A stretch of DNA of 64,000 bases. Origin: an uncultured Chloroflexia bacterium (lineage in GTDB: Bacteria; Chloroflexota; Limnocylindria; Limnocylindrales; CSP1-4). Position numbers and translations under genes: made by a program. Positions 15,639 to 64,000 of the stretch are shown here, in pieces. The notes beneath the pieces were generated by a model. That model searched no databases and had not been told where the DNA came from. It saw only the letters and a program-made list of their open reading frames with translations. How positions within the stretch are numbered: the first letter of the stretch is position 1; every line of letters begins with the position of its first letter. The DNA is taken from positions 219,692 to 283,691 of the forward strand of contig CAVQRM010000002.1 of NCBI GenBank assembly GCA_963715245.1. Reading direction: 5' to 3'.

Positions 15639-15690
15639 GGCTCGATCGTAGGGCCCTCGCCGCGATCGGCCCCCTGCCGCACGGACCGGT

Positions 15691-22041: not shown

Positions 22042-22582
22042 CGGGACTGTCCGTGATCCTCTCCGTCCGGCCCTGGGACCCGGAAGCTCCGACCCCTAGA
22101 GGCACGCAAACGCGCCGAGCGCTTGAGAGCGCGGCGGCGCGTGTTCGTCCGGGGGATGATATGGCCCGTTTCGAAGGGGTGTCAAACGCGCGTACGTGCG
22201 GGAGGTGGGCGGTGCGGCGCGCTGCCCGGTGCGTCCTGGCACCATCTCCGATCAGATCGCAGGGCGGGCCGCCAGGCGTCGCGTCGCGCCGGCCGGGACG
22301 CGGCCCGACGACGGCCGTGGTCCGCCCCCCGACAGCGAGCGTGATACTCCCTGGGGGTATGCGCGAATCGCCTTGCGACGGCCCCGAAACCCGGTGTATT
22401 GTTCCCGAGCCTCGGGCGCTCGGACGAGGCGGGAATCCCTTCCGAGGGGACGGCCCGCCGGTCGAACTCGAGCTCCGGCAGGCGCACCGTCGCGGGGTCG
22501 CGACGACGCTCCCTGGTTGCGGCCGCCCTGGTTGGCGTTACCCATCGCAAGTCTTGTTAGCCCAGGAAACACGATCGCACGT

Positions 22583-34181: not shown

Positions 34182-34202
34182 CGCTGCGTTAGGAGGCTCC
34201 CC

Positions 34203-37200: not shown

Positions 37201-39584
37201 TCGCGGCCGAGCTCGTCGAGGTCCTGGGCACCACGCCCGACGGCTCGGCATCGACGGTGTACGTCGTCGAGCCGCACGGGAAGTCCGTGTTCGCGGACCA
37301 CGAGCTGTCGTTCACGCCGAGCGCGTGGGTGCTCGACCACAACGAGGACTACCCGGCGGACGCGCGCGGCGCCATCCTCGCCTTCGGGGAGGGCGGCGAG
37401 ACCGCGTCGCTCGACGTCGGGTCCTACCACTTCGCGTGGCGCCTCCCGGGCGTCATGCTCGGGGCGCTGACGATCGCGCTCCTGTACCTGCTGGCGCGGG
37501 TGCTGTTCGCGCGGCGCGCGGTCGCGGTGCTCGTCGGGCTGTTCGTCCTGCTCGACGGGATGATGTTCGTCCAGAGCCGGATCGCGATGAACGACGTCTA
37601 CACCGGGGCGTTCATCCTCGCGGCGTACCTGCTGTTCGCGTGGCTGTGGATCGAACGTCGTCGCACACGGACGTTCTGGCTGATCATGCCCGCGATCGGC
37701 GTGCTGCTGGGCCTGGCACTGGCGTCGAAGTGGGTCGCGGCGTACGCGATCGGGGCGCTCGGGATCCTCATTCTCATCCGGTCTGCGCTGGGCAGGATCA
37801 TCCTCATCGCCGGCATGATCGGTGTGACCGGGATCCTCGGATGGATGGCGATGGCCGTGCCCGAGGGCAGCGACGCGTCGGGGAACCTGCTGTTCACCCT
37901 GATCATGGTCGCCCTCACGCTGGCGACGGTGGTGGTCACGGTCTACCACCCCATCCGCTGGTCGGACGACGAGGTCCGCCTTGCCGTCGCCGGTCCGGCA
38001 GCGCTCGGCATCGTCGTCGCACTGGGTGCGATCGCGCTGGGCGAGGCTTCGACGGAGATCGCGGTCGGACCGATCCTGCTCAACCCGCTGACGGTCGCGT
38101 TCGCCCTCGTCGTCACCGGCGGCCTCGCGTACCTCGCGTTCCAGGTCGGCGCCCGATACGGGATGGGGCCGATGGCACCGGATCCGCTGCCCGGCGAGCC
38201 GCGGGCGCTCGTCCCGCCGCCCTCCCCCCCGGCCGACGGCTGGCTCCGGCTGGGCTCCGGCTTCGGCCTGCCGATCGTGTGGATGGTCGTCTCGCTCGTC
38301 GCCATCCCGGTCGCCGTCTACGTGGCCCTCTATCTCCCCTGGGCGTTCATCGACAACCACCAGCTGGTGGCCGGCTGGCCGATCGGTCACACGGGCCAGA
38401 CGCTCGTCGAGCTCACCGAGGCGATGTACCGCTACCACAACAACCTGACCGCGGCCCATGCGGCAAGCTCGCCGTGGTGGGCCTGGCCACTCAACCTCAA
38501 GCCCGTCTGGTTCTACCAGGGCTCGTTCGCCAATGCGACGGCCGGCTCGATCTACGACGCGGGCAACATGGTCGTCTGGTGGATGGGGATCCCGGCGATG
38601 GGGTTCGTCGCGTACCAGGCGTTCAAGCGCCGCAGCCTCGCGCTCGCCCTGATCCTCATCGCCTTCCTGTGCCAGTGGGTCTCCTGGGGCCGCATCGACC
38701 GGGCGGCCTTCCAGTACCACTACTACACCAGCCTGCCGTTCGTGATCCTCGCCCTCGGCTACTTCGTGGCTGAGCTATGGCACGGTGCCTCGCGCCGGAC
38801 GTGGCTGTTCGCACGCGTGGCTGCGGCCATCGCGCTGATGGGCCCCGTGATCCTGTGGCTCATGCGCATCCCGCTGTGCTCGATCGCCGGCGTCGAGTCG
38901 GTCAACGCGGGGTCGCAGGCGTGCAACGGGAACCCGGGCAACCTCGTCGTGACCCCCGCGGCGTTCGCGATGGTCGTCGTGGGGCTCGTCACGCTCATCG
39001 TGCTCGTGCGCCAGCTCGTCCGGCTGTCGAGACCACGGGAGGATGGGCGACCACTCGGCTTCGGGGATCTCTCGCCGCTCGTGATCACGGCGATCGCCGG
39101 GGGATCGCTCCTCGCGCTCACGCGCCTCCTCCCGTCGACCGATCCCCTGTTCTCGTTCGCCGGCATCGTGCCGGAGCTCATCGCCCTGGTGATCGGGGTG
39201 CCGCTCCTGTTCGTCGCCCTGCAGGTGGTCACGGCGCGTGATGCCCGCCGGTTCGTGCTCGGTCTCGTCGGGGTGGCGGGCTTCTGGTTCGTGTTCCTGT
39301 ATCCGAACATCTCGGCGCTGCCACTGCCGTCCACCATCGTCAACGCCTACCAGGGCCTGCTGCCCACCTACATCTACGCGTTCCAGTTCGGCGTCAACAC
39401 CGTGGAGCGGGGTGGGTCGATCTCGTTCGCCGATCCGCGGTTCGCGGTCCTGATGGTGTTCCTCGCGGCCGCCTGCGGGGTCGTGGCCTACTCGGCGCGG
39501 GTGTGGCGGATGACGCTCGAGGACGATGAACGATCGGTGAGCGGGTCCGCCGGTGGGCCCGCGGGCGAGGCCGGCCCGGCCTAG
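34203..39584 (+). CDS. Giant (~1790 aa) fusion of two GT-C glycosyltransferase domains: an N-terminal ALG6/8-like domain and a C-terminal PMT (GT39-like) domain with an inserted beta-propeller-like region
   Basis: GTG 34203 lies 6 nt after AGGAGG (alternative start ATG 34242). N-terminal domain: FADYTPGYLYALW, VHERYLFPLF. PMT domain: RMHFDEVYHARTA (DE motif at 36057-36062), WTHPHLAKYAMAGGIALFAG, then FAWRLPGVMLGALTIALLYLLARVLF, and the C-terminal SSPWWAWPLNLKPVWFYQ. The ORF-track start at 33237 is antisense junk. Confidence 0.8.
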   Translation: MTALGSGAPGRETMTDDTSRRGLGWQILALLVIGLIFRLMMAYGLEALRGSGFETDLRLFAFWAENLADQGPFGFYERGFFADYTPGYLYALWAVGVVGNWVGGVGDLIKLPAILTDAVLAYVVYRMVRDLGVTERRALLAAAVVLINPVTWFDSVIWGQVDSFGTVFLLLSVRELWKGRHERAAILAVVAALIKPQLAILVPIVAFVTIRRVLWPKGAWGDEPAPEPSGFGWERRTTGLLRIFSTGVAGFVTAVVLAAPFGLSVVTISTTAPYLDSSLLRLVFSTAATYSYVTVNAYNLWALFPLDGASLASNGGWIYDAPVPDATAWAQIGPFPAALVGGVLLGALLFVIVPAIVARRPDRLTILVGVAVLALAFFAVPTRVHERYLFPLFGIAAILFAFSWRWRIAYVVASIATFLNMYVVLTTLYGNNPQVEDWLGIGPAIRSYGGVALVAVLHTAALVFGLWQLRDGSRRRLATELEGGRLPDWEAATGDVPALVGGTTVRNEGAEGRGPAVAVASSAPTVPPAALLPTQAVSSPARRSPAWFERRSWGDVGPVSWLRARIGETPIRPDRSRLLIGEKGGRLDRLDIWILIVLVVAGMGLRTFRLAEPARMHFDEVYHARTATEFLQSWRYGIDDTIYEWTHPHLAKYAMAGGIALFAGQDVAASSELGVAVRDAVIEPRRPDPTSMDRAGDRVWIATGDALVAYDLATRELVAELPLPGAAAVAFDPESTQVYVGTDAGAVLALDATVLDAVRNDGSSVEADQVPVDLSPVASLDSPIARLAVFADGDAVAARLAGDAVAILDAATGEERGRATIAGPGDLAAAGRIDAIVAKPAEIPDLQAAADELAAVLGGDPAAYLAYLAADPDAEAVVIDAVLDADARTNLDDAIAAERLPGIVIEAAPLLAVAGDAGVSLVSTRGTVVHEVALDGGSTGVVLVSGVDDGTQLYATTTDGETGTPEVAVIAVTGDDADDGPKVTTTFDLPGAGSRITYDLAAELVEVLGTTPDGSASTVYVVEPHGKSVFADHELSFTPSAWVLDHNEDYPADARGAILAFGEGGETASLDVGSYHFAWRLPGVMLGALTIALLYLLARVLFARRAVAVLVGLFVLLDGMMFVQSRIAMNDVYTGAFILAAYLLFAWLWIERRRTRTFWLIMPAIGVLLGLALASKWVAAYAIGALGILILIRSALGRIILIAGMIGVTGILGWMAMAVPEGSDASGNLLFTLIMVALTLATVVVTVYHPIRWSDDEVRLAVAGPAALGIVVALGAIALGEASTEIAVGPILLNPLTVAFALVVTGGLAYLAFQVGARYGMGPMAPDPLPGEPRALVPPPSPPADGWLRLGSGFGLPIVWMVVSLVAIPVAVYVALYLPWAFIDNHQLVAGWPIGHTGQTLVELTEAMYRYHNNLTAAHAASSPWWAWPLNLKPVWFYQGSFANATAGSIYDAGNMVVWWMGIPAMGFVAYQAFKRRSLALALILIAFLCQWVSWGRIDRAAFQYHYYTSLPFVILALGYFVAELWHGASRRTWLFARVAAAIALMGPVILWLMRIPLCSIAGVESVNAGSQACNGNPGNLVVTPAAFAMVVVGLVTLIVLVRQLVRLSRPREDGRPLGFGDLSPLVITAIAGGSLLALTRLLPSTDPLFSFAGIVPELIALVIGVPLLFVALQVVTARDARRFVLGLVGVAGFWFVFLYPNISALPLPSTIVNAYQGLLPTYIYAFQFGVNTVERGGSISFADPRFAVLMVFLAAACGVVAYSARVWRMTLEDDERSVSGSAGGPAGEAGPA

Positions 39585-51262: not shown

Positions 51263-52738
51263 CTACCCGGCGATCTGCGTGACGGCCTCGGCCGCGGTCC
51301 CGACGATGTCGAGCAGGAGGTTCGGGAACAGCCCGAGGGTGATCGTCAGCACGGTCGCGACCGCGAGCCCGCCCCACACGAGGCGGCCGTGCTCCAGCTT
51401 CGGGATCTCGGTCTGCGGCTCGCGCATGAACATGTAGACCACCACCCGCAGGTAGTAGAAGGCTGCGACGGCCGCGTTGAGCACGGCGAGCACCGCGAGG
51501 ACGGTGAGCCAGCCGCCGGCCTGGACCGCGGCGAGGATCACGTAGAACTTGCCGAAGAATCCGGCCGTCGGCGGGATCCCCGTGAGGCTCAGCAGGAACA
51601 GGGTCATGAGCAGCGCAAGCGCGGGCTCGCGGCGGATGAGGCCGGCGAACGTGGACAGGTTCGAGGTCACGCCGAGGCGCTTCTGGAGGGCCGCGATCAC
51701 GGCGAATGCACCGAGGTTCATGAACGCGTACGCGGCGCTGTAGTAGAGCAGCCCCTCGAGGCCCTGGATCTGCCCGGCGGCGTAGGCCGCGAACCCGACC
51801 AGCATGTAGCCGGTGTGGGCGATCGAGGAGTACGCGAGCATCCGCTTCACGTTGTCCTGGGTCAGGGCAACGAGGTTGCCGAGGGTCATGGTGAGCGCGG
51901 CCAGGACCATGATCACCGCGATCCACTGGTCGGACAGCGGCCCGAGGGCCTCGCCGAACAGCCGGATGATCAGGGCGAAGGCACCGACCTTCGGGCCGAC
52001 CGAGAGGTAGCCCGTGACGGGCGTCGGCGAGCCCTGGTACGCGTCGGGTGTCCAGTAGTGGAACGGCACGGCGGCGATCTTGAACGCGACGCCGGTCATC
52101 AGCAGCGCGAGCCCCATGCCGAGACCCGGCGACAGCGCCACGACGCCGCTCACGACCTGCCCCAGGAAGCCCGAGACCTCGCCGATGTTCGTGGTGCCGG
52201 TGATGCCCCACACGAACGCGAGGCCGAACAGGAAGATCGCGCTCGAGAAGGAGCCGAGCAGGAAGTACTTGATCGCACCCTCGGTGCTGTAGCCGTCGGT
52301 CTTGTGATACCCGGCGAGCATGTAGCCCGGCAGGACCATGAGCTCCAGGCCGAGGAACAGCACCAGCAGATCCGCGGAACCTGCGATGAGCATCGCGCCC
52401 GACATCGCGAACACGAGGACCGAGGCGAACTCCGCGACCGGGAGCCCCCGCTCCTCGAGGTAGTCCGGCGCAAACGCGACGGTCAGCCCGACGATCGAGA
52501 TGAACAACAGGTCGAGGAACGTCGTCAGGGGATCGACGACGTACCCGCCGCCGAATGCCTCACCCGGTTCCTGGCCCACGATGCCCGTCAGCAGCGCGAC
52601 GAGCCCCAGCCCCACGAACGTCGTGAGCAGCGCCGGGAGGGACTTGCCCGGCCAGATGAAGTCGACGACGAGGATCGCGACGGCGACGAGGACCGCGGCG
52701 ATGAACGGTGCGAGGAGGACGGCGTCGGAAGCGGTCAC
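51263..52738 (-). CDS. nuoN: NADH-quinone oxidoreductase subunit N
   Basis: 491-aa polytopic ORF: LLVLFLGLELMVLPGYMLAGY...AIKYFLLGSFSSAIFLFG. Confidence 0.95.
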   Translation of the reverse strand: MTASDAVLLAPFIAAVLVAVAILVVDFIWPGKSLPALLTTFVGLGLVALLTGIVGQEPGEAFGGGYVVDPLTTFLDLLFISIVGLTVAFAPDYLEERGLPVAEFASVLVFAMSGAMLIAGSADLLVLFLGLELMVLPGYMLAGYHKTDGYSTEGAIKYFLLGSFSSAIFLFGLAFVWGITGTTNIGEVSGFLGQVVSGVVALSPGLGMGLALLMTGVAFKIAAVPFHYWTPDAYQGSPTPVTGYLSVGPKVGAFALIIRLFGEALGPLSDQWIAVIMVLAALTMTLGNLVALTQDNVKRMLAYSSIAHTGYMLVGFAAYAAGQIQGLEGLLYYSAAYAFMNLGAFAVIAALQKRLGVTSNLSTFAGLIRREPALALLMTLFLLSLTGIPPTAGFFGKFYVILAAVQAGGWLTVLAVLAVLNAAVAAFYYLRVVVYMFMREPQTEIPKLEHGRLVWGGLAVATVLTITLGLFPNLLLDIVGTAAEAVTQIAG

Positions 52739-52749: not shown

Positions 52750-54300
52750 CTACCGCCCGAGCCCGAGGGCGGTCGGGGCGACGTCACGCACGGCGCTCAG
52801 CGCGGCATCGACGGAGCCGGCGACCAGATCGAGGATCAGGCCCGGATAGAGGCCGAAGATGACGACCAGCGCCCCCAGCGGGACGAGCGTCATCGCCTCG
52901 ATCGGCCGCATGTCCGTCAGATGGCTGCCGAGCCCCTTGAGGAACTCGGACGGCTCGCCGAACGCGACTCGCTGGAACATCCACAGCAGGTACCCGGCGG
53001 CGAGGATCATGACGAAGGTGGCGATGGCCGCCGCGACCGGGTTGACGACGAACGTGCCCACGAGCGTCAGGAACTCGCCGACGAAGCCGGACAGGCCGGG
53101 CAGCCCGACGGAGGCGAACACGAAGAACCCGAAGGCCGCCGCGTAGACCGGGGTCTTCGATCCCAGGCCGCCCATCTTCGCGATCGTGCGGTCGTGGGTC
53201 CGCTCGTAGATCACGCCCACGAGGAGGAACAGGGCACCCGTGATCAGGCCGTGGTTGATCATCTGCAGGATCGCGCCCTGCATCCCCTGCTCCTGGAACA
53301 CGAAGATGCCCAGGGTCACGAAGCCCATGTGGCTGACCGAGGAGTAGGCGACGAGCTTCTTGAGGTCCGGCTGGACGAGCGCGACGATCGCGCCGTAGAT
53401 GATGCCGATCAGGCTGAGCACGATGATCGCCGGGGCCCACGTCTGCGCCGCCTCGGGGAACAGGGGGATGCCGAACCGGATGAACCCGTACCCGCCCAGC
53501 TTGAGCAGGACGCCGGCGAGGATCACCGAGCCCGCGGTGGGCGCCTCGACATGCGCGTCGGGGAGCCACGTGTGGAACGGGAACATCGGGACCTTGATCG
53601 CGAACGCGAGGAAGAAGGCGCCGAAGGCGAGGAACCCGAACGTCCCGCCGAACGCGCCGGTCTGCGCGAACGCCGACAGCGTCGCGACGTCGAAGGCCCC
53701 GGTCCACGTGCCCTGCGCCGCCTGGTACGTGTAGGCCGTCGCGAGGATCGCGACGAGCATCAGCAGCGACCCGACGAGCGTGTACAGGACGAACTTGATC
53801 GTCGCGTAGATCCGGTTCTTGCCGCCCCAGATCCCGATGATCAGGTACATCGGGACGAGGACCAGCTCCCAGAAGATGTAGAACAGGAACAGGTCCATGG
53901 CGACGAACACGCCGATCATCCCGACTTCCAGGATGAGGAAGGAGATCATGTACTCCTTCACCCGCGTCTGGATCGGGCCGAACGACGCGAGGATGCTGAT
54001 CCACGTCAGCGTCGTGGTCAGCACGACGAGCGCGAGCGACAGCCCGTCGACGCCCACGGCGTACTGGATGCCGAACATCGGGATCCAGTCGTAGCGCTCC
54101 GTGAACTGGAAGGCCGGGTCACCGGACACGAAGCCGACGAGCAGGACGAGCGACACGACCCACGCCGCGAGCGCGACGCCGAGGGCCGCGTAGCGGACCA
54201 GGTTCGGGCGACCCGACGGCAGGAACGCGATCACGATCGCGCCGATAAGCGGCAGGAAGGTGACGAGGGACACGAGCGGGATCCCGTCGAGGCCGGTCAC
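52750..54300 (-). CDS. nuoM: NADH-quinone oxidoreductase subunit M
   Basis: 516-aa ORF: FPFHTWLPDAHVEAPTAGSVILAGVLLKLGGYG. Confidence 0.95.
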   Translation of the reverse strand: MTGLDGIPLVSLVTFLPLIGAIVIAFLPSGRPNLVRYAALGVALAAWVVSLVLLVGFVSGDPAFQFTERYDWIPMFGIQYAVGVDGLSLALVVLTTTLTWISILASFGPIQTRVKEYMISFLILEVGMIGVFVAMDLFLFYIFWELVLVPMYLIIGIWGGKNRIYATIKFVLYTLVGSLLMLVAILATAYTYQAAQGTWTGAFDVATLSAFAQTGAFGGTFGFLAFGAFFLAFAIKVPMFPFHTWLPDAHVEAPTAGSVILAGVLLKLGGYGFIRFGIPLFPEAAQTWAPAIIVLSLIGIIYGAIVALVQPDLKKLVAYSSVSHMGFVTLGIFVFQEQGMQGAILQMINHGLITGALFLLVGVIYERTHDRTIAKMGGLGSKTPVYAAAFGFFVFASVGLPGLSGFVGEFLTLVGTFVVNPVAAAIATFVMILAAGYLLWMFQRVAFGEPSEFLKGLGSHLTDMRPIEAMTLVPLGALVVIFGLYPGLILDLVAGSVDAALSAVRDVAPTALGLGR

Positions 54301-56342
54301 TGCGCCTGCCCCACGATCAGGAGGAACGAGCCGGCCATGACGATCAGCCCGATCGCGATGCCCAGCGCGTAGTTCTGGACGCGCCCCGTCTGGATCCTGC
54401 GCAGACCGCCACCGGCGTCACGGGTCAGCAGGCCGATGCCGTTGACCGCGCCGTCGACGATCACCCGGTCGAACCACCACATGGCCGCCGCGACGCGTCC
54501 GCCGATCCGGATGAACAGGAGGTCGTTGAGCTCGTCGAACCACCACTTGTTGAGCGAGGCGCGGTAGAGGAAGCGGGTCGCGCCGTTCGCGTTCGTCAGG
54601 CGCTCCACCGTCGCGGGCCGTCCGCGCCGCCGGAAGATGCCGAACAGCCAGATGCCGACGACCAGGCCGAGGGTCGCCACGAACACGCTGGCAAGGATCA
54701 GGAAGCCGTCGATGCCAAACAGCTGGTAGGCCTTTGGCTCTCCGTGCAGGAGCTCCTCGGACTCCTTGAACACCGGCTCCAGCCAGTGCTTGATCGTGGA
54801 GTCGCCCAGCGGGAGGCCGATCGCGAGGCCAAGCAGGGTGGACGGGATCGCGAGCAGGATCAGGGGCAGGGTCATCGACGGCGGCGACTCGTGGATCTTC
54901 GGCTCAACCTCCGGATCGACGCGCGACTCGCCGTAGAACGTCTTGCCCATGAGGCGCCACATGTAGAACGCGGTCATCATCGCGACGACGATGCCGATCG
55001 CCCACACCCAGTAGTACTCGAACTTGAAGGCCTCGCCCAGGATCTCGTCCTTCGAGAAGAAGCCGGCGAACACCGGGATGCCGGCGATCGCCAGGGTGCC
55101 GATGAGCATCGTGGCGTGGGTGATCGGGATCCTCCGCCACAGGCCGCCCATGCGGTTCATGTCCTGCTCCTCGTGGACCGCGTGGATCACGGAGCCCGAG
55201 CCCAGGAACAGCAGGCCCTTGAAGAAGCCGTGGGTCATGAGGTGGAAGATGGCCGCGACGAACGCGCCGATGCCCAGCGCCGCGAACATGTAGCCCAGCT
55301 GGCTCAGCGTCGAGTACGCGAGCACCCGTTTGATGTCCGTCTGGGTCATCGCGATCGACGCCGCGAGGATGGCGGTGAAGATGCCGATCGCCGCGACGAC
55401 GACCATCGTCTCCTGCGCGTGGGCGAACAGCGGGTTGGCGCGCGCGACGAGATAGACGCCGGCGTTGACCATCGTGGCCGCGTGGATGAGCGCGGACACC
55501 GGCGTCGGGCCCTCCATCGCGTCCGGCAGCCAGACGTGGAGCGGGAACTGGGCGCTCTTGCCCATCGCGCCCGCGAACACGAGCAGCGCCACGATGGCCA
55601 GCGGGATCGTGTTCGTCGCGTCCGGGGCGATCAGCAGCTCCAGCGACTCCTGGATGTTCATGGTCCCGGTGTTCACGAAGATCGCCATGATCCCGAGCGC
55701 GAACCCGACGTCGCCCACCCGGTTGACGATGAACGCCTTCTTCGCCGCGAGCGCCGCCGAGCGCTTGTGGTACCAGAACCCGATCAGCGAGTAGCTCGAC
55801 AGGCCGACCAGCTCCCAGCCCGCGAACACGAGCAGCCAGCTCGACGCGAGCACGAGCACGAGCATCGAGAACATGAACAGGTTGAGGTAGGCGAAGAACC
55901 GCCAGGTTCCAGCGTCGTGCGCCATGTACCCGATCGAGTAGATGTGCACGAGCATGCCGATCGTGGTGACGACGAACAGCAGGACGGCGGTCAGCGCGTC
56001 CACGTGGAAGCCGATGTCCACCGTGAAGTCGCCCGCGGGGATCCACGTCCAGAGCTTGACCTCCAGGCCGTGCTCCCCGAACGGCTCCACGTGGTTGAGG
56101 GCCGGCCAGATGACCATCAGCGCGATGATCCAGACGACGACGACGATGCCGACCGGGACCAGCTCCGCGGCCCCACGCCCGAACCTCGCCTGCAGCCGGC
56201 GCCCGAACAGGGCCGTGAACGCGAACCCGAGGATCGGGAGCAGCGCGATCAGCGAGATGAGCAGCGGGTAGCTGCCCGGATCGGCGCTCGCCACCGGCTC
56301 GGCCTCGGTGGCCGCGAAGAGCAGGCTCGGGAGGAGGTGCAT
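54297..56342 (-). CDS. nuoL: NADH-quinone oxidoreductase subunit L
   Basis: 681-aa ORF: GKSAQFPLHVWLPDAMEGPTPVSALIHAATMV, with a long C-terminal amphipathic extension. Confidence 0.95.
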   Translation of the reverse strand: MHLLPSLLFAATEAEPVASADPGSYPLLISLIALLPILGFAFTALFGRRLQARFGRGAAELVPVGIVVVVWIIALMVIWPALNHVEPFGEHGLEVKLWTWIPAGDFTVDIGFHVDALTAVLLFVVTTIGMLVHIYSIGYMAHDAGTWRFFAYLNLFMFSMLVLVLASSWLLVFAGWELVGLSSYSLIGFWYHKRSAALAAKKAFIVNRVGDVGFALGIMAIFVNTGTMNIQESLELLIAPDATNTIPLAIVALLVFAGAMGKSAQFPLHVWLPDAMEGPTPVSALIHAATMVNAGVYLVARANPLFAHAQETMVVVAAIGIFTAILAASIAMTQTDIKRVLAYSTLSQLGYMFAALGIGAFVAAIFHLMTHGFFKGLLFLGSGSVIHAVHEEQDMNRMGGLWRRIPITHATMLIGTLAIAGIPVFAGFFSKDEILGEAFKFEYYWVWAIGIVVAMMTAFYMWRLMGKTFYGESRVDPEVEPKIHESPPSMTLPLILLAIPSTLLGLAIGLPLGDSTIKHWLEPVFKESEELLHGEPKAYQLFGIDGFLILASVFVATLGLVVGIWLFGIFRRRGRPATVERLTNANGATRFLYRASLNKWWFDELNDLLFIRIGGRVAAAMWWFDRVIVDGAVNGIGLLTRDAGGGLRRIQTGRVQNYALGIAIGLIVMAGSFLLIVGQAQ

Positions 56343-56354: not shown

Positions 56355-56687
56355 CTACTGCCGCATCGCGTCGTACTCGTCGACGAGCGGCGTCTTGCGG
56401 TTGCGGAAGATCGCGATCACGATCGCGAGGCCGACCGTCGCCTCTGCGGCGGCGGCCGCCATCACGATCAGCGCGATGACCGACGCGTCCACGTTGAGCG
56501 ACGTGGAGAAGGCACCGAAGGCGATGATCGAGAGGTTGACGGCGTTGAGCATCAGCTCCACCGACATGAGCATCGAGATCGCGTTGCGGCGGGCGAGGAA
56601 GCCGAAGCTGCCGATGCAGAACAGGACGGCGGCGAGGATCAGGTAGGCGTCCAGCGACTGGGAGAGGCCGTCGAGCGCGCTCAGCAT
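56355..56687 (-). CDS. nuoK: NADH-quinone oxidoreductase subunit K
   Basis: 110-aa ORF: [18 protein letters not shown]...[13 protein letters not shown]. Confidence 0.95.
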
Positions 56688-57223
56688 CAGTCGTTCCCCC
56701 CGCGCTCACGCTTGGCGAGGAACACGCCGCCGATGACCGCGGCCAGGAGCAGGACGCTGACCACCTCGAAGGCAAGGACGTAGTCGGTGAACAGCGTGAC
56801 CGCCAGCTCGCGGGCGGGCGTCACGACGCGGGCAGCCGCCTCGGACCAGTCGGTCGCCGCGATGGTGATCGCGAACAGCACCGCGAGCACCGCGGACGCG
56901 ATGGCCGCCGGGAACGCCTGCGTCTGGAACACGAGCGAGCTGGGGCCCGCCTTCGTCTGCGTGAGCATGATCGCGAACAGGATGAGGACGCTGATCGCCC
57001 CGATGTAGACGAGCACCTGCGCCGCCGCGACGACCGTGGCGCCGGCGAGGACGTAGAGCCCGGCGAGGGCGCCGAAGCAGACGATCATCGCGAGGCCGCA
57101 GCGGATGATGTCGCGCATCGTCACGACCAGCAGGGCGGACCCGAGCATCACGGCCGCGAAGCCCATGAACAGCAGGTCATCCCATCCGAACCCGAGCAAC
57201 GGGATCGTCTCCGGCAGCGTCAC
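56687..57223 (-). CDS. nuoJ: NADH-quinone oxidoreductase subunit J
   Basis: 178-aa ORF: [24 protein letters not shown]. Confidence 0.9.
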
Positions 57224-57232: not shown

Positions 57233-59886
57233 TCAGCGATCGTGGGCGTGGGTCGACCCGTTCCCGGACCCGTGCTGGTGTCCGTTCCCGTTGCCGTTCC
57301 CGTTGCCGCCGACGAGCGAGGGAGGCAGGACGGGCAGCATGCGGCTCGAGTCGAGGAGACGTCCCTCGGCCCGCGCCCGCTCTGCCCAGTCGCGCTCGCG
57401 GCGGATGTAGCTCATCTCGGTCTCGCGCTCCACCGAGGCCAGCGCGAGGAGGTCGATCATCGGCTCCTCGCGGGACGTGTGGCTGAGCTCGAACTGGTCG
57501 CTGTCGCGGACCGCGTCGTACGGGCACGCGTCCACGCAGATGCCGCACAGGATGCAGCGGCTCTCGTCGACCTCGTACTTCTGGAGGACGCGGGGCTTGG
57601 GCATGAGCGCGCCGGTGGGGCACGTCTCCGCGCAGCGGCCGCAGGAAACGCACGGCGTGTCGTTGAGGCTCATGTCGAGCGGCGTCGTCACCAGGGTGTC
57701 GAAGCCGATCCGCATGAAGTCGTAGCAGGCGGCGCCGACGACCTCGGCGCACACGTTGGCGCACCGGCCGCAGTCGATGCAGCGTGACGGCTCCCTGAGG
57801 ATGAACGCGTGGGAGTCGTCGCGGACGTAGTCGTGGTTGTAGCCCGTGAACCGGTTCTCGGTCACGGACCGGTAGCCCGCCCCCTGGTGGAACTGCGGCT
57901 CGAGCGTCTTGAGCGTCGTCCCGTACTCGATCCCCAGGCGGCGGAGATCGCAGAACCCGATCGCCTCGCAGGTGCACTGGAGGCAGCGGGTGGACTCGGC
58001 GACGGCCTCGTCGCGGTGTACGGGATCTCGTACTCGATGTAGTTGCTGTTGCGGGCCTCGGGCTCGAGGGCCTTGAGCCGGTAGCGCGGCTCCTTGATCT
58101 CGCCCGTGAACGGGACGATCGAGAGGAACTCCGGCTGCGGCTCGGCGAGCGTCTGGCGGGTGCGGATGGCCGACAGGTCGTTGCCCTTGAGGTACGCGTC
58201 CACCGCGTAGGCGGCGCGGCGGCCCTCGGCGATCGCCTGGACGACCGTCGCGGCGCCGATCCGGACGTCGCCGGTGCCGAACACGCCGGGCCGGGAGGTC
58301 TCGAAGGTCACCGCGTCGGCCTTGAGCCTGCGGTTCTTCGTCTGCTCGACGTTGTCCGAGCCCGGGCCGATCCAGGTGAGGTCGGGGCCCTGCCCGATGG
58401 CGAGGAGCACCCGGTCGCAGGGGATGACGAACTCGGTTCCCGGCGCGGGCTCGGGGCGGCGCCGGCCCGACGCGTCGGGCTCGCCCAGCGCCATCCGGAT
58501 GAACTCGATCCCGGTGACCTTGCCCGTCTTCGCGTCCGTGACGACCCGCGTGGGCCCGGCCTGGAAGATGGCAGTCACGCCTTCTTCGATCGCCTCGTGG
58601 ACCTCGGATGCCGCGGGCATGTCCTTCATGTCGCGCCGGTAGACCAGGGTCACCTCGCCGGCGCCCTGGCGGACCGACGTGCGGCTGCAGTCCATCGCGG
58701 TGAAGCCGCCGCCCACGACGACGACACGCGTCCCGGCATGCCCCGGGTACGGCAGGCCCAGCGTGGCCGTGCGCAGGTACTCGAGGCCGTCGATCACGCC
58801 GTCGGCGTCCTCGTTGGGAATGCCCAGCTTGTTCGTGTCGTAGCAGCCGATGGCCACGAGGACGCTGTCGAAGCCGCGGTTCTGGAGGTCGTCGAGCGTG
58901 AAGTCCTTGCCGAGCTCCTGGTTGCACACCAGCTTGCCGCCGAGGCGGGTCACGGACTCGTACTCGGCTTCGAGGACCTCCACCTTGGGCAGGCGGTACT
59001 GCGGGATGCCGTAGCGGAGCATGCCGCCGGGGGCGGGGTCGCGCTCGAAGACCGTCACCTCGTGCCCGGCGAGGAGCAGGTAGTACGCCGCGCTCATGCC
59101 CGCGGGCCCGGAGCCGATCACCGCCGCGCGGCGGCCGGACGGGGCCTGCTTCTCGAACGGGACCGGCGGGTCCATGTTCTCGTCCAGCATCGCCTTCAGG
59201 ACCTGGTCGCCGGCGTAGCGGTGGCTGTCGCGGATGGCGATCGCCTCGTCAACCTCGTCGCGCCGGCAGTGCTCCTCGCATGGGGCGGGGCACACGCGGC
59301 CGAGGATGCTGGGGAACGGGATCGTGCGCTTGAAGATCCGCGCGCTCTCGACCCAGTTCGCCTCGGCGTTGGCCTTGAGGAAGCCCGGGATGTCGATATG
59401 GCTCGGGCACTTGTTCTGGCAGGGCGGGAGGCAGTAGGCGTTGTGGTCGCTGAAGATGAGCTCGAGGTTCGTCTTCCGGATCCGGCGCAGCTCGTCCGTC
59501 TGGGTGCGGACCACCATGTCCGCCTCCGCCTCGCGGGAGCAGGAGATTGGCGGCTGGTCCTCGCCCTCGACCTCGCACACGCACATCCGGCACGCGCCGA
59601 AGCCCGGCAGCTTGGGCTCGTAGCACAGGGTCGGGATCTCGATGCCGTTGTCCCGGCAGATCTCGAGGATCGTCTGGCCCTCGAAGCCCTCGACGACGCG
59701 ACCGTCCACCTCGATCCGGATCCGCGGCGTGCTCTGCGGCCGCTGCGGGGACTGCGTCGTGATCAGCCGCTCGGCGAGGCTGTCCTCGCGGGGCGTGACC
59801 GTGTCGTAGACGGCAGGCTGGTCCGGACGCGCGTCACGCCGCTCGAGCGGCGCGTCGGTGTCGGGGCGAACGATGAGGTCGGCCAT
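57233..59886 (-). pseudogene. Composite Fe-S flavoprotein (2Fe-2S NuoG-like N-terminus, GltD-like FAD/NAD(P)H domain, NuoG-like 4Fe-4S region, NuoI C-terminal half), with a 1-nt frameshift near 58012-58020 (as assembled)
   Basis: Frame A (from ATG 59886): IEVDGRVVEGFEGQTILEICRDNGIEIPTLCYEPKLPGFGACRMCVCEV, then CLPPCQNKCP...GRVCPAPCEEHC, AAVIGSGPAGMSAAYYL...GGMLRYGIPQYRLPK, ending ...NYIEYEIPYT. Frame B continues RDEAVAESTRCLQCTCEAIGFCDL...RCIDCGRCANVC...CVSCGRCAETCPTGAL...KYEVDESRCILCGICVDACPYDAV...FELSH...MIDLLAL. The junction tac acc|gcg ac would be repaired by one extra C. Confidence 0.8.
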
Positions 59887-61220
59887 CAGCGGGATCCCGG
59901 TGTCGACGCACCCACCGCGATGGGGTGACAGACCCCGGCGGGACAGGTGCTGCGGAGGAGGTGGTCGTCGAGCTCGGATCGGAAGTATCGCATCCCGCTG
60001 GTGAACGGAAGGGTCGCCAGGCGCTCGTGGTCACACAGCCCGGAGGCGACGACGTCGTGCGCGAGGTCCTCCATCAGCGCGAGGTCGGTCGGCTTCGGAC
60101 GCCCGCTCGCGACACGGTCGCCGATCTCGTACAGCCGCCGCAGGCCGATCCGGCACGGGATCGTCTTGCCGCACGCCTCGTCCGCGGAGAACTTCGTGAG
60201 CAGCCGGGCCAGGTCGACGATGCACGCCCGGTCGTCCGCGATGACGACGGAACCCGAGCCGATGTGGGCCCCGACCGCGCGCAGCGCGTCGAACTCGTAC
60301 GGGGTGTCCAGGAGATCGGCGGGGAGCAGGCCGCCGGTCGGCCCGCCGACGAGCAGTGCCTTGAGGCTGCGCTTGCCGATGCCGCCCGCCAGGCGCACGA
60401 GCTCGGTGAGCGGGGTGCCGAGCGGGACCTCGGCGATGCCCCCGCCCGCAGGCCCGCGGAGCTGGACGAGGATCGTGCCGGGGCTTGCCGTCGACCCGAT
60501 CGCCGCATACGCTGCGCCGCCCTCGCGCACGATCCACGGGACGGATGCCAGGGTCTGGACGTTGTTGACGACGGTGGGCTTGTCGAACAGGCCCTTCTCG
60601 GTGGGGTACGGCGGGCGCTGCTCTGGCTGGCCGCGCTTGCCCTCGAGGGCCCTGAGCAGCACCGTCTCCTCGCCCAGCATGTAGGCGCCCTGGACGGGCC
60701 TGACCGTGACCGTGACCCGGTGGCCGGAGCCCATGACGTCGTCGCCGAGGAAGCCCGCCTCCTCCGCCGCGAGGAGCGCGCCCTCGAGCAGCGTGATGAG
60801 GCTTGTGTCCTCCGCCCGGACGGCGATGATCGCCTCGGTCGCCCCGATCGCGAATGCCGCGATCGCGAGGCCCTCGATGACGACCCAGGGGTCGCTCGCC
60901 ATGAGCGTCGCGTCGGTCCGGACGGCCGGGTCGGCCCCGTAGCCGTTGGCGACCACGTACCGCTGCGTCGCCGGCTGGTTCGCAGCTGCCCGCCACTTCT
61001 CGCCGGTCGGGAAGCCGGCGCCGCCGCGGCCCCGCAGGCCCGAGCTCGCAACGGTCGCGATCGTGCCCGTCGCGCCCAGGTCCCGGACCGACCGCCGGAG
61101 CGCCTCGAAGGCACCCGCGCGCGTCGCCGCGTCGAGGTCGCCCGGGTCCTCGGCAAGCGCCGCGACGCGCCCGGTGACGACGGCCGGCCACTCCTTCGGC
61201 GTCTTGAGGAACGCGCCCAT
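59886..61220 (-). CDS. nuoF: NuoF-like FMN/NADH-binding subunit (variant N3 cluster motif)
   Basis: 444 aa from ATG 61220: SGLRGRGGAGFPTGEKW, GAYMLGEETVLLRALEGKRGQPEQRPPYP, NNVQTLASVP. The cluster motif reads EACGKTIPCR (Thr where the second Cys is expected), then GLCDHE. TGATG overlaps at both ends. Confidence 0.85.
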   Translation of the reverse strand: MGAFLKTPKEWPAVVTGRVAALAEDPGDLDAATRAGAFEALRRSVRDLGATGTIATVASSGLRGRGGAGFPTGEKWRAAANQPATQRYVVANGYGADPAVRTDATLMASDPWVVIEGLAIAAFAIGATEAIIAVRAEDTSLITLLEGALLAAEEAGFLGDDVMGSGHRVTVTVRPVQGAYMLGEETVLLRALEGKRGQPEQRPPYPTEKGLFDKPTVVNNVQTLASVPWIVREGGAAYAAIGSTASPGTILVQLRGPAGGGIAEVPLGTPLTELVRLAGGIGKRSLKALLVGGPTGGLLPADLLDTPYEFDALRAVGAHIGSGSVVIADDRACIVDLARLLTKFSADEACGKTIPCRIGLRRLYEIGDRVASGRPKPTDLALMEDLAHDVVASGLCDHERLATLPFTSGMRYFRSELDDHLLRSTCPAGVCHPIAVGASTPGSR

Positions 61221-61882
61221 CAGCTCGCACGCCCCTTGTAGCCGAGCGACGCATCGAGCGCCGAGCGGTAGGCGTTCTCGATGGCGACATGCGCCACGCC
61301 GGCGGCGGGGACGGTCTCGACCGGCGGCGGCTCGAAGCGCAGGTGCCGGTAGTAGCTCGCGGTGCCGTAGATCAGCGCGTAGCCGGCACCGGTGATCCGG
61401 CTGATGTGCTTGAGCGCCCCGACCGGGAGGTGGCCGTACTCCGCCTGTGTCTCCTCGAGGATCGCGAGCATGGCCTTCGGGTCGTAGTCGTGACGCTCGA
61501 GGATCTCGTCGAGGGCCGCCGTGTCGACCGGGTCGAAGCGGTTGAAGGCGGCATCCGGCACCGGGCGGCCGGAGCGCCGGATCGCGGACTCCTCGCGGCG
61601 CTCGCCGTACGTCTCGGGCGGCCCCCAGTGGACGTGGAAGCGGCCCTTGGTATCGATGCCGCCCATGTCGATGCACTCGATCGGGCACGCCTGCGCGCAC
61701 TGGAAGCACGTCTCGCACTTGAGCGTGCCGTACTCGTCGTACAGGAGCTGCAGGCGGCCGCGGAACTTCGGCGCGACGTCGGCCTTCTCCTCGGGCCAGC
61801 GGATGGTCGCCTTGGGCTGGAAGAACCGGCGCAGGGTGAGGCCCATGCCGCGGACGATGCCCATGCCGGGAACGAGGCTCAT
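61220..61882 (-). CDS. Fusion of the NuoI N-terminal half (one 4Fe-4S motif) to a NuoE-like helical domain lacking the 2Fe-2S domain
   Basis: Residues 1 to about 85 (GMGLTLRRFFQPKATIRWPEEKADVAPKFRGRLQLLYDEYGTLKCETCFQCAQACPIECIDMGGIDTKGRF) align with NuoI through its first CxxCxxCxxxCP motif. Residues from about 115 (LDEILERHDYDPKAMLAILEETQAEYGHLPVGALKHISRITGAGYALIYGTASYYRHLRFEP) align with the NuoE N-terminal bundle. There are no further Cys residues. Confidence 0.7.
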   Translation of the reverse strand: MSLVPGMGIVRGMGLTLRRFFQPKATIRWPEEKADVAPKFRGRLQLLYDEYGTLKCETCFQCAQACPIECIDMGGIDTKGRFHVHWGPPETYGERREESAIRRSGRPVPDAAFNRFDPVDTAALDEILERHDYDPKAMLAILEETQAEYGHLPVGALKHISRITGAGYALIYGTASYYRHLRFEPPPVETVPAAGVAHVAIENAYRSALDASLGYKGRAS

Positions 61883-61886: not shown

Positions 61887-63236
61887 TCATCCGTTCAGCT
61901 CGGTGACGACGAGGATCGCCGCCGCGGTGATGAACAGGTTCAGGAGCGACGCGGGCAGCAGCCACTTCCAGGCAAACCCCATCAGCTGGTCGATGCGCAC
62001 GCGGGGAAGGGTCCCGCGCATCCACACGAAGATGTACACGAACAGGAACGACTTGAGCATGAACCAGACCAGGCCCGCGACCCAGTCCCACTCCACGTAG
62101 GCGATCCCGAACACGAACCCGATCGCCACGACGTTGAACACGAGGAAGCCGAGGATGAGCGCCTGCCACCCCGGCCGGTTGCCGTTCGCGAGCCAGAACG
62201 GCAGGGCGAACAGGATCGTCAGCAGGGGCGGCACGACCGCGATGAGGAACAGCAGGCCGATGCCCAGCGACCCCGGGTCCAGGTTCAGGTTCACGTCGGG
62301 GAACGGGACCGGCGCGTTCCAGGCCCCGAAGTAGAGCGTGACCATCAGCGCCGAGATGATGAACACGTTCACGTACTCGGCGAAGAACAGGAAGCCGAAG
62401 CGCATGCCCGAGTACTCGGTCGCGAACCCCGCGACGATCTCGGAGTCGGCCTCGGTCAGGTCGAACGGGGTGCGGTTCGCCTCCGCGGTGGCGGCGATGA
62501 AGAAGATCAGCGCGCCGAGCGGCTGGCGGAACACGAACCAGTCCCAGAACCCGCCACCCTGCTCCTCGGCGATCTGGTACACGCTCATCGTCCCGGCGAG
62601 CAGGATCAGGCCGACGACCGAGAGCGTGAGCGGGATCTCGTACGAGACCGCCTGGGCCGCCGAGCGGAGGCCGCCCAGCAGGGAGTACTTGTTGAAGCTG
62701 GACCAGCCGGCCATGAGCAGGCCGACCACCGTCATCCCGCCGACGGCGAACAGGTACAGCAGGCCGATGTTGAGGTCCTGGCCGACGAGCCCCGGGCCGA
62801 ACGGGATGACCATGAACGTCATCACCGCGGTCAGGAACACGACGACGGGCGCCCAGGTGAACACGATCCGGTCTGCGCCCGTGGGGGTGAAGTCCTCCTT
62901 CATGAGGACCTTGAGCCCGTGCACTACCGACAGGAGAGAGCCGAAGGGGCCGACGCGGTCCGGACCCACGCGAAGGTTCATCTGGGCGATGACCTTCATC
63001 TCCATGTAGATGATGATGAACGCGGCCGGGATGCTGAACAGCAGGACGCCCGTCACCGCGACCACGAACCGGACGATCTCGATGTTCGCCGTGAGCAGGT
63101 CCGCGAGCCACGGTGCGACGTAGACGACGAACAGGATCGTGAGGATCGGGCCGACGATCAGGACGAGGGCCAGCAGCGGCAGCATGACCTTGCCCAGCGG
63201 GGTCATGTTGCCCCAGGCGCGGTTCAGGGTGGTCAC
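61887..63236 (-). CDS. nuoH: NADH-quinone oxidoreductase subunit H
   Basis: EMKVIAQMNLRVGPDRVGPFGSLLSVVHGLKVLMKEDF, FNKYSLLGGLRSAAQAVSYEIP, TPFDLTEADSEIVAGFATEYSGMRF. The start is either GTG 63236 (GTGA overlap with nuoD) or ATG 63206. Confidence 0.9.
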   Translation of the reverse strand: MTTLNRAWGNMTPLGKVMLPLLALVLIVGPILTILFVVYVAPWLADLLTANIEIVRFVVAVTGVLLFSIPAAFIIIYMEMKVIAQMNLRVGPDRVGPFGSLLSVVHGLKVLMKEDFTPTGADRIVFTWAPVVVFLTAVMTFMVIPFGPGLVGQDLNIGLLYLFAVGGMTVVGLLMAGWSSFNKYSLLGGLRSAAQAVSYEIPLTLSVVGLILLAGTMSVYQIAEEQGGGFWDWFVFRQPLGALIFFIAATAEANRTPFDLTEADSEIVAGFATEYSGMRFGFLFFAEYVNVFIISALMVTLYFGAWNAPVPFPDVNLNLDPGSLGIGLLFLIAVVPPLLTILFALPFWLANGNRPGWQALILGFLVFNVVAIGFVFGIAYVEWDWVAGLVWFMLKSFLFVYIFVWMRGTLPRVRIDQLMGFAWKWLLPASLLNLFITAAAILVVTELNG

Positions 63237-64000
63237 TTGTCGATCCCGCCCATGACCGGGTCGAGGCTGGCCATGACGGCCATCGTGTCCGCGATCAGGT
63301 TGTTCCGCATCAGCAGCCCGACCAGCTGCAGATTCACGAACGACGGGTCGTGGATCTTCATTCGGAACGGCTGGTCCGTCCCATCCGAGATCGCATAGGT
63401 GCCGTACAGGCCGCGCGGCGCCTCGACCGCGGCCCACGCACGTCCCGGGCGCGGGCGCAGGAGTCGCGGGAGCTTCGCCATGACGGGGCCGTCGGGCATG
63501 TTGTGGAGGCACTGGTCGATGATCCGGAGGCTCTCGCGGACCTCGTCGATCCGGAGCAGGTAGCGGTCCAGCGAGTCTCCGCCACGGTCGTTGCCGCGCG
63601 TCGGGACGTTGAACTCGAGCTCCGGGTAGACCGAGTAGGGGTGCGCGCGGCGGATGTCGTACGGCACGCCCGAGGCCCGGAGGTTGGGACCGGTGACGGC
63701 CATGCGCATCGCGGTCTCGCGGTCGAGGACGCCCATCCCGCGCATCCGCCGGACGAAGATCTCGTTCTCGTTGAGGAGCGCGGTGTTCGCCTCGTGCTGC
63801 GCCGCTGCGCGGCTCATCCAGTCGCCCAGGCGGGACATGAACTCGTGATTGAGGTCGCCGTTGACCCCGCCGATCCGGAAGTAGTTGAACAGCATCCGCT
63901 GCCCGGTGATCGCGGCGAGCATCTCGACGATCTCGTCGCGCTCGATGAACGACCACAGGATCGGCGTCAGGCCACCGAGGTCCAGCGCCATCCAGCCCTG
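63233..64000 (-). CDS. nuoD: NADH-quinone oxidoreductase subunit D, C-terminal part (5' end outside window)
   Basis: Frame is open to the window edge: RIGGVNGDL...VEAPRGLYGTYAISDGTDQPFRMKIHDPSFVNLQ...ASLDPVMGGIDK. Confidence 0.9.
   Translation of the reverse strand, partial: QGWMALDLGGLTPILWSFIERDEIVEMLAAITGQRMLFNYFRIGGVNGDLNHEFMSRLGDWMSRAAAQHEANTALLNENEIFVRRMRGMGVLDRETAMRMAVTGPNLRASGVPYDIRRAHPYSVYPELEFNVPTRGNDRGGDSLDRYLLRIDEVRESLRIIDQCLHNMPDGPVMAKLPRLLRPRPGRAWAAVEAPRGLYGTYAISDGTDQPFRMKIHDPSFVNLQLVGLLMRNNLIADTMAVMASLDPVMGGIDK

Follow-up and report, generated by a model that had tools for sequence, protein, structure and literature searches.

The nuo operon in the 64,000-nucleotide stretch of DNA analyzed here (the window; contig CAVQRM010000002.1 of an uncultured Chloroflexia bacterium) raises the question of where its complex I obtains NuoI, the ferredoxin-like subunit with two 4Fe-4S clusters. 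The slot of nuoI, between nuoH and nuoJ, is occupied by three genes, which we call P1, P2 and P3. Sequence comparisons indicate that a natural cut divides nuoI in the loop that connects its two 4Fe-4S motifs, its first half lying in P1 and its second at the end of P3, and that an NAD(P)H module is nested between the halves. To the overall model, a nuo operon with a split nuoI and a nested module derived from NfnABC/StnABC that feeds complex I, we give a probability of about 65%.

P1 and P3 carry complementary halves of NuoI

An earlier note on this DNA, made from its letters, had proposed that P1 begins as the N-terminal half of NuoI, and profile searches bore this out. Residues 8-82 of P1 covered the N-terminal half of NuoI models alone (positions 1-63 of 121 in TIGR01971 and 12-87 of 180 in NF004536). 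The same note had placed the missing second half at the end of the 57233-59886 product. As to the half itself this was right, residues 766-811 of the repaired P3 matching positions 71-116 of TIGR01971; as to the product it was not, since P3 is no single open reading frame (ORF) in the window and is broken by one nucleotide at 58013-58015 (see below).

In both proteins the likeness to NuoI reaches beyond the cluster motifs. A NuoI-specific N-terminal segment (T-x2-YP-x-E...RG...L) precedes motif 1 in P1, with T26, P30, R41 and G42 invariant in the alignment with canonical NuoI, and the NuoI-specific segment that follows motif 2 (FE-x-S ... D..L) was found in P3. The halves hit complementary residues of solved TYKY/NuoI chains, for example residues 76-140 (P1) and 152-200 (P3) of Arabidopsis TYKY. 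When they were concatenated, they could be aligned over their whole length with nine canonical NuoI proteins (31-36% identity), and the eight Cys, two Pro and NuoI-specific flanking residues were invariant. The cut falls in the inter-motif loop, the length of which varies in canonical NuoI, and both NuoI junctions are in frame, as had also been claimed.

Neither protein resembles a whole NuoI. Against TIGR01971, P1 scored 49.6 bits and P3 51.9 bits, half a profile each, the whole-protein cut-off being 113.05 bits. Canonical NuoI holds both CxxCxxCxxxCP motifs in one chain of ~160-180 amino acids (aa); here P1 has the one and P3, at its end, the other. All solved complex I structures matched here have NuoI/TYKY as one chain, and so do the operon types with 11 to 14 subunits that Degli Esposti surveyed (PMC4758237). 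No second ORF with a CxxCxxCxxxC[P/A] motif was found in the 64 kb window, nor any other nuoI candidate in the about 16 kb of the loci of 80 relatives. An exact look-up of the window P1 sequence returned no record.

The split is conserved among relatives

When GTDB species were scanned, each represented by one genome, at least 591 stretches were confirmed; from these 80 loci were kept, nearly all from Limnocylindrales or Chloroflexota metagenome-assembled genomes (MAGs). The earlier note had suggested looking for the same split in related genomes, and it recurred with identical boundaries in all 80 independent genomes; the order nuoH-P1-P2-P3-nuoJ was present in every kept locus with enough flank. 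P1 had 2911 database relatives, the best 120 of which were about 220 aa long and 78-91% identical. P3 was the best-conserved protein of the stretch, at 80-95% identity between the window copy and its relatives. Iron-sulfur (Fe-S) Cys of P1 and P3 were 100% conserved in the 80 sequences (C77, 0.98), and residues 41-100 of P1, which comprise the motif and the linker beyond the cut, were its most conserved part. Because the layout is conserved in relatives and the eight NuoI Cys are kept throughout, the split is neither an assembly artefact nor due to chance.

More divergent loci carried variant layouts. In a metagenomic locus with the order D-H-P1-P2-P3 (L083), P1 was 27% identical to the window protein and retained the full NuoE 2Fe-2S domain, and the N3 motif of P2 lacked its third Cys (CGRCIPG), not its second. 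A Chloroflexi MAG of 54% GC content (JACPPZ010000003.1; L085:6481-14281) had the order A-B-C-D-H-P1-P2-P3, with a P1 of 29% identity, an intact N3 and a P3 of 47% identity that included the NuoI C-terminal half; the genes after P3 encoded a flavin reductase, a ferredoxin and a 2-oxoacid:ferredoxin oxidoreductase, and nuoJ-N were not adjacent. A third locus, again metagenomic, consisted of nuoB-P1-P2-P3 (L088:9392-14515) with no other nuo genes within 10 kb; a smaller and possibly soluble assembly may be another setting in which the module with the split NuoI works.

The fourth variant, from a metagenome of 49% GC (L087:359-11571), had the same NuoI split in a different set of fusions. There nuoH was followed by the NuoI N-terminal half fused to a full NuoE, then by a thioredoxin-like, NuoF and GltD fusion of 1048 aa, then by a HoxU-like protein fused to the NuoI C-terminal half (265 aa), and then by nuoJ-K-L-M-N. 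GltD was thus joined to NuoF, the motifs of which were canonical with all three N3 Cys. The 265 aa protein had one close database relative, the rest being ordinary short NuoG/Fdh-type proteins, so this is a rare variant. As the split was kept in these four loci despite their differing layouts, the constant feature is the division of NuoI with E-F-G-type genes nested in it, while the position of GltD, the presence of N1a and the state of N3 vary.

The nested genes encode a trimmed NfnABC/StnABC-like module

Past the split point, P1 continues with a linker (HVHWGPPETYGERREESAIRRSGRPVPD) as conserved as the cluster motif (0.95) and without a family match. The note had it continue into a NuoE-like domain, which was correct in kind, PF01257 being matched, and too generous in extent: residues 125-187 matched positions 2-64 of 145, the N-terminal helical domain alone. 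P1 is without the thioredoxin-like [2Fe-2S] (N1a) domain of NuoE and has no Cys after C70. The full NuoE domain is retained in other lineages (P0260, P0254). Public names of P1 relatives include 'NAD(P)H-dependent oxidoreductase subunit E [Candidatus Limnocylindrales bacterium]', 'ferredoxin' and 'hypothetical protein'.

Profile matches also agreed with the proposal that NuoF and a 2Fe-2S/GltD/Fe-S region lie between the halves. P2 contains the Complex1_51K (PF01512) and NADH_4Fe-4S (PF10589) domains. Its best match in the PDB was NfnB (9n5u_B, residues 127-537 of 602, E 7e-103), and it was closer to NfnB, StnB and HydB (E about 1e-103) than to bacterial NuoF chains (1e-79 to 1e-64). Against the NuoF model TIGR01959 it scored 341.9 bits (cut-off 558.65), and it departs from the canonical NuoF motifs, C-x2-C-x2-C...C for N3 and NADE(G/S)EPG for the pocket. 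Compared with NfnB, P2 is missing a domain at either end, a thioredoxin-like one at the N-terminus and a 2x[4Fe-4S] one (B3/B4) at the C-terminus, and no Fer4 match was obtained.

Two sites of P2 are altered. The N3/B1 motif at 60153-60173 (residues 350-356) reads C-G-K-T-I-P-C, the middle Cys having gone, and all 70 aligned relatives have C-x2-[T/S]-x2-C at this position (ACGK[T/S]IPC). Judged from the motif, the site could hold a [3Fe-4S] cluster or an O-ligated cluster, or the cluster could be lost. At ~60909-60947 (residues 92-104) the NuoF/NfnB pocket motif NADE(G/S)(D/E)PG is replaced by N-[G/A]-Y-G-A-D-[P/T], and aligned relatives have NGYGADP (ANGYGADP) instead of NADEGDPG. This replacement is common to three of the five layout variants (the window type, L083 and L085), the others reading NAEEGEPG (L087) and NAYDADP (L088); the pattern suggests a remodelled site that is under selection.

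P3 aligned over residues 56-789 with residues 4-700 of the solved chain 9bov_A (E 8e-161), and also with 8oh5_C and 9n5u_A. Its GltD-type unit is complete (Fer4_20 and Pyr_redox_2), and the GltD motifs for flavin adenine dinucleotide (FAD) and NADPH, GSGPAG and VYRRDMKDMPA, are essentially invariant in relatives. Two 4Fe-4S motifs further on, M1 and M2, aligned with the motif pair of solved NfnA/StnC-type chains, which leaves M3, the NuoI motif, unpaired within P3. The Fdh-like C-terminal domain of those chains is missing, and in the alignment M3 starts about at the first cluster motif of that domain. The molybdopterin-oxidoreductase-like domain of NuoG is absent as well, P3 scoring 83.9 bits against TIGR01973 (cut-off 470). 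Since the nearest solved relatives of P2 and P3 are NfnB/StnB and NfnA/StnC, the cassette is best described as a trimmed NfnABC/StnABC module and not as generic NuoE, NuoF and GltD proteins. The end of P3 (57236-57310, GGNGNGNGNGHQHGSGNGSTHAHDR) is rich in Gly, Asn and His and variable in sequence, with a similar tail in the relative L001; it may bind metal.

In the window, P3 is read in two frames, frame A at 57862-59886 and frame B at 57233-58927, and a 1-nt repair joins them. The window has TACACC-GCGAC where its closest relatives have TACACCCGGGAC or TACACCCGCGCC, a single C being missing; the relatives read ACC CGG GAC or ACC CGC GCC at the site. P3 is one full-length ORF in 61 of 73 relatives, the intact ORF being 884-892 aa long, and 24 relatives read IPYTRDEA across the deletion site, which is exactly the repaired window sequence. 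The break resembles an assembly error in a homopolymer (CCC), although a recent mutation could also have caused it. It lies ~140 codons upstream of the NuoI C-terminal half and is unrelated to the division of nuoI. A programmed frameshift was ruled out, the ORF of the relatives being plainly intact and the window merely short of one C.

Table 1. Features of the nuo operon and of the P1-P2-P3 genes, in window coordinates and in order of transcription.
Feature	Coordinates	Strand	Evidence
nuoD, 3' part	63233..64000	-	Gene leaves the window end; ORF list; full-length L001 homologue NF004739 405 bits (cut-off 360)
nuoH, 439 aa	61887..63206	-	NF004741 315.7 bits (cut-off 305)
P1, 220 aa	61220..61882	-	NuoI N-terminal half fused to NuoE N-terminal helical domain
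P1 residues 1-85, NuoI N-terminal half	61628..61882	-	First motif C56-x2-C59-x2-C62-x3-C66-P; NuoI profiles, TYKY/NuoI PDB chains
P1 residues 86-119, linker past the split point (HVHWGPPETYGERREESAIRRSGRPVPD...)	61526..61627	-	Residues 81-100 with mean conservation 0.95 across relatives, above the NuoE part
P1 residues 120-190, NuoE/NfnC-type N-terminal helical domain alone	61313..61525	-	PF01257 positions 2-64 of 145
P2, 444 aa	59886..61220	-	NuoF/NfnB-like flavoprotein (flavin mononucleotide, FMN); PF01512 and PF10589; start overlaps P1 stop (TGATG)
P3	57233..59886	-	2Fe-2S/GltD/Fe-S protein with NuoI C-terminal half; two frames in the window
P3 residues 55-130, NuoG/HydA-type [2Fe-2S] domain	59497..59724	-	PF13510, E 1e-18; Cys conserved
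P3 residues 152-570, GltD/NfnL-type, two [4Fe-4S] motifs with FAD- and NADPH-binding folds	58177..59433	-	PF14691, PF07992; NF009454 545 bits
1-nt deletion splitting P3 into two frames	58013..58015	-	DNA comparison with L003, L004, L001
P3 residues 635-646, C-x2-C-x-C-x5-C	57950..57985	-	N5-like position; aligned with 9bov_A; Cys 100% conserved
P3 residues 696-760, HydA/HoxU-type 2x[4Fe-4S], M1 (C703-C713) and M2 (C746-C756)	57608..57802	-	PF22117 Fer4_Nqo3 over 696-761; aligned with StnC-like 9bov_A; Cys 100% conserved
P3 residues 763-830, NuoI C-terminal half (M3)	57398..57601	-	Second motif C778-x2-C781-x2-C784-x3-C788-P and FELSHTSREEPMIDLLAL segment; TIGR01971, TYKY/NuoI chains E about 1e-12
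P3 C-terminal tail with stop codon: a predicted helix followed by a low-complexity end rich in Gly, Asn and His	57233..57397	-	Conservation down to 0.47-0.69
nuoJ	56687..57223	-	Best model NF005168, 110.6 bits, under curated cut-off 154
nuoK	56355..56687	-	NF004320 104.7 bits (cut-off 57)
nuoL	54297..56342	-	TIGR01974 724.9 bits (cut-off 407.5)
nuoM	52750..54300	-	TIGR01972 596.5 bits (cut-off 263.8)
nuoN	51263..52738	-	TIGR01770 424.3 bits (cut-off 332.6)

A predicted route for electrons from NAD(P)H to menaquinone

In 2x[4Fe-4S] ferredoxin folds, three Cys of each CxxCxxCxxxCP motif ligate one cluster, and the last Cys of the motif ligates the second. By homology M1 and M2 satisfy each other, which leaves the P1 motif and M3 as orphans that would complete each other in trans. 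The four motifs would then hold four clusters, and N6a and N6b would be rebuilt from P1 and P3 on NuoB, NuoD and NuoH, each NuoI half tethering part of the input module. As the Fdh-like domain has given way to the NuoI C-terminal half, and the NfnC-type domain is joined to the NuoI N-terminal half, both tethers would converge on the place of NuoI, and the double fusion would make geometric sense.

For the cofactor paths of Nfn and Stn, and for the contact made by the N-terminal domain of NfnC, we drew on published work (PMC11829005, PMC10482914). In Nfn the path runs FAD-A7-A6-A3-A2-A1-B1-FMN, and A2-A4-A5 is a dead-end side branch (PMC11829005). Mapped on this scheme by alignment, the 2Fe-2S cluster of P3 would be A1, the two GltD clusters A6 and A7, the C-x2-C-x-C-x5-C cluster A3 and the M1/M2 pair A2 and A4, with M3 at the sequence position of A5. 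Electrons from NADPH would pass through the GltD FAD to A7, A6, A3 and A2, and those from NADH, probably through the P2 FMN, to B1, A1 and A2. From A2 they would continue by way of A4, N6a, N6b and N2 to menaquinone and so drive proton pumping. The exit would thus use the branch that is a dead end in soluble Nfn/Stn.

Canonical complex I passes electrons to NuoI from N5. The N5-equivalent cluster of P3 adjoins the GltD clusters, so that the geometry of the peripheral arm probably differs here. That a core complex I subunit has become an obligate two-chain 2x[4Fe-4S] domain, the halves of which dock a two-flavin (NADPH and NADH) module of Nfn/Stn descent onto the quinone and proton-pumping machinery via the dead-end branch of the soluble enzymes, is a more tentative proposal, to which we would give slightly less than even odds.

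Weighing the model

Several observations count against the model, and we weigh them here beside the alternatives to which they belong. P1-P2-P3 might be a separate Nfn/Stn-like oxidoreductase, soluble or linked to NuoB, that lies inside the nuo operon of a complex I with a normal NuoI encoded elsewhere. P2 and P3 are indeed nearest to soluble NfnABC/StnABC. The locus with nuoB and no other nuo genes nearby (L088), and the one in which P3 is followed by unrelated genes and not by nuoJ-N (L085), indicate that the module may also work outside a full complex I, and our look for a second nuoI covered the 64-kb window and the relatives' loci, with about 8-10 kb of flank. Such an enzyme would not explain the NuoI-specific segments of P1 (N-terminal) and P3 (C-terminal, FE(L)S...L), which go beyond generic Fe-S motifs. 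Nor would it explain why the genes fill the nuoI slot exactly, with coupled starts and stops, and why the sequence covered held no other candidate for nuoI. We consider it improbable.

A second alternative is that M3 pairs in cis with M2, the P1 half-motif being vestigial or ligating a cluster with another partner, and that no NuoI fold is assembled in trans. The spacing of 21 residues between M2 and M3 is that of an ordinary in-cis ferredoxin domain, repeats of polyferredoxins match the stretch, and Pfam Fer4_7 spans residues 746-792. AlphaFold2 models of the joined halves were too low in confidence to speak for or against the trans-assembled fold, with a predicted local distance difference test score (pLDDT) of 34.6 for P1 1-112 and P3 757-850 as a single sequence, and of 52.8 for P1 1-86 joined to P3 from ~760 (LMPKPRV...) as far as the Asp that follows GRLL, aligned with nine canonical NuoI sequences. 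Pairing in cis would, on the other side, deprive M1 of a partner that it has in the solved NfnA/StnC pair and in Fer4_Nqo3, with both of which M1 and M2 align together, and the four motifs make four clusters only with the P1 motif paired to M3. The P1 motif and the next 40 residues are also the best-conserved part of P1 (0.95-0.98), and the NuoI-specific match of M3 and its flanks extends past the Cys motif. Pairing of M3 with M2 is thus unlikely in our estimate.

The third concerns what a complex with a split NuoI would do. It might be a bifurcating or confurcating 'Nuo-Bfu' enzyme in which NADPH, NADH and quinone (or ferredoxin) are coupled at the NuoF/NuoE-like flavin-cluster site. Their sequences place P2 and P3 in the Bfu lineage, there are predictions of membrane-bound Nuo-Bfu and Mbh-Bfu enzymes (PMC9304861), and the variants L083 and L087 retain a full NuoE with its 2Fe-2S ligands, L087 with canonical NuoF motifs as well. 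The minimal bifurcating site is B1-FMN-C1 (PMC11829005). In the window lineage C1 is absent, P1 having no NuoE 2Fe-2S domain, and the middle Cys of B1/N3 is missing in 70 of 70 relatives; the B3/B4 ferredoxin-binding domain of BfuB is absent too. A bifurcating core is therefore wanting in the window lineage and is present, or partly so, in L087 and L083. With parts of the B1-FMN-C1 site missing and the route to ferredoxin over B3/B4 gone, bifurcation is unlikely in the window lineage. Changes in P2 also touch the split-nuoI model, since a changed flavin/NADH pocket and an incomplete N3 in P2 may mean that entry at the FMN is modified or weak.

A sequencing, assembly or pseudogene artefact of the window, to which the real frame break in P3 at 58013-58015 and the many metagenomic relatives that are frameshifted fragments might point, is very improbable as the source of the split, because that break lies well upstream of the NuoI half and is independent of it and because each of the 80 independent genomes has the same boundaries and the split recurs in divergent lineages. 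Should the deletion be real, the P3 copy of the window could nevertheless be inactive.

The nuo operon and its surroundings

The nuo genes and P1-P2-P3 all lie on the minus strand of the window. Stop and start overlap as TGATG at both the P1/P2 and the P2/P3 borders, and spacers of 4 nt (nuoH/P1) and 9 nt (P3/nuoJ) separate the three genes from their neighbors. P1, P2 and P3 are separate, translationally coupled polypeptides. A single P1-P2-P3 polyprotein was ruled out by the stop codons that divide the genes at the TGATG overlaps, and the long 'fused' entries found in databases, P0161 among them, are frameshifted reads.

The backbone had been described as D-H-[I]-J-K-L-M-N, and the flanking genes do match as true nuoD, nuoH, nuoJ, nuoK, nuoL, nuoM and nuoN. 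The relative L001 has the whole operon, A-B-C-D-H-P1-P2-P3-J-K-L-M-N, with nuoA-B-C lying upstream in relatives. By profile scores in the window and L001 together, the other ten core complex I subunits are all encoded in one operon. H, K, L, M and N of the window and B and D of L001 scored above curated cut-offs; J of the window and A and C of L001 scored below theirs while matching their own Nuo models.

NuoH of the window is longer than that of L085 (439 against 355 aa), with an N-terminal extension and a lineage-specific hydrophobic insertion of ~77 aa (~62076-62306, residues ~301-377) that plausibly forms two extra membrane helices. In NuoB and NuoD of L001, which are N-terminally extended, hidden Markov model matches begin at residues 78 and 49, respectively.

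Elsewhere in the window, dnaA (22160-23944, plus strand) and the nuo operon are about 27 kb apart, and the window is therefore probably near the chromosomal replication origin. An ORF of 2138 aa (33168-39581, plus strand) matches protein O-mannosyltransferase families (PMT, PMT_4TMC) in its C-terminal third alone, and a second, TMEM260-like PMT gene is found at 31022-32734 (minus strand). A P-type ATPase with a C-terminal hemerythrin domain, an unusual fusion, is encoded at 13293-16004 (minus strand).

Relation to known systems

The locus has in common with NuoI/Nqo9/TYKY (NDUFS8) its place between nuoH and nuoJ, the two CxxCxxCxxxCP motifs and the segments that flank them, N-terminal and C-terminal (FE-x-S...L). 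It differs in that there are two polypeptides, both of them fusions with a further redox protein, and in that ~4 kb of genes separate the halves.

The nested module is closest to StnABC/NfnABC (PDB 8oh5, 9bov, 9n5u), members of the Bfu family of electron-bifurcating enzymes (PMC9304861, PMC10482914, PMC11829005). The order P1-P2-P3 is that of the Stn subunits of S. ovata, in which StnA is NuoE-like, StnB NuoF-like and StnC GltD/NuoG-like (PMC10482914). StnC/NfnA resembles P3 over about 700 residues, comprising the 2Fe-2S domain, the GltD/NfnL insert, the N5-like cluster and the HydA-type pair; StnB/NfnB resembles P2; and the N-terminal domain of StnA/NfnC resembles the C-terminal part of P1. 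All three subunits have been changed relative to these enzymes. In P3 the NuoI C-terminal half stands where the A subunit has its Fdh-like domain, P2 is without both terminal domains of the B subunit and has C-x2-T/S-x2-C for C-x2-C-x2-C, and P1 has lost the 2Fe-2S domain of the C subunit and is fused to the NuoI N-terminal half. Whereas NfnABC/StnABC is a soluble tetramer, the genes predict a module that is linked to the membrane through complex I.

Membrane complexes in which a Bfu module replaces NuoEFG in the middle of the cluster, Nuo-Bfu and Mbh-Bfu, were predicted by Schut et al. (2022, PMC9304861). Nuo-Bfu has 14 subunits (A-N) and no GltD domain, and it occurs in Deferribacteres, Proteobacteria, Planctomycetes and Nitrospirae (PMC9304861). 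It is like the present locus in having a Bfu-type module in a complex I-like cluster and unlike it in that here GltD is present and NuoI is split and fused; the words 'split' and 'fused' do not occur in that paper. Its tree was built on BfuB homologues with a 4Fe-4S ferredoxin-type domain (IPR017896). P2 appears to be without this domain, so that the window family would fall outside the tree.

In Mbx-like operons a GltD-related flavoprotein takes the place of NuoI, and the enzyme is proposed to reduce NAD(P)+ from ferredoxin (Degli Esposti 2015, PMC4758237); there too a GltD-type NAD(P)-binding flavoprotein is wired straight to where NuoI would sit in a relative of complex I. In contrast to these, NuoI is kept here, if split, and the backbone, with NuoL, NuoM and NuoN, is that of a true quinone-type Nuo. 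The family NF009454/PRK12814, 'putative NADPH-dependent glutamate synthase small subunit', matched residues 56-715 of P3 over positions 4-630 of 657 (E 2e-163), at a score under the curated cut-off of 916 bits, and P3 has the NuoI C-terminal half in addition.

The note had supposed the architecture to be undescribed, and we found no description of it: literature searches for a split NuoI, or for such an architecture in Limnocylindria, returned general background only. Complex I with an alternative input module is a known kind, and the unusual feature of this one is a core ferredoxin subunit shared between two fusion proteins.

Implications for complex I and for Limnocylindria

If the model is right, the locus encodes a natural 2x[4Fe-4S] fold made from two chains, which bears on the origin of this fold by duplication of a half-domain. 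It would also mean that a soluble NAD(P)H module of the bifurcating type was recruited to complex I by fusion and stripped of its bifurcation parts, and that the peripheral arm has a geometry unlike that of every solved complex I.

Limnocylindria are a widespread class of Chloroflexota, abundant in soil and freshwater. Given the public names of P1 relatives, automated metabolic reconstructions probably score their genomes as lacking nuoI. The model predicts instead that complex I in Limnocylindria would oxidize NADPH directly and conserve the energy, as a proton-pumping NADPH:menaquinone oxidoreductase.

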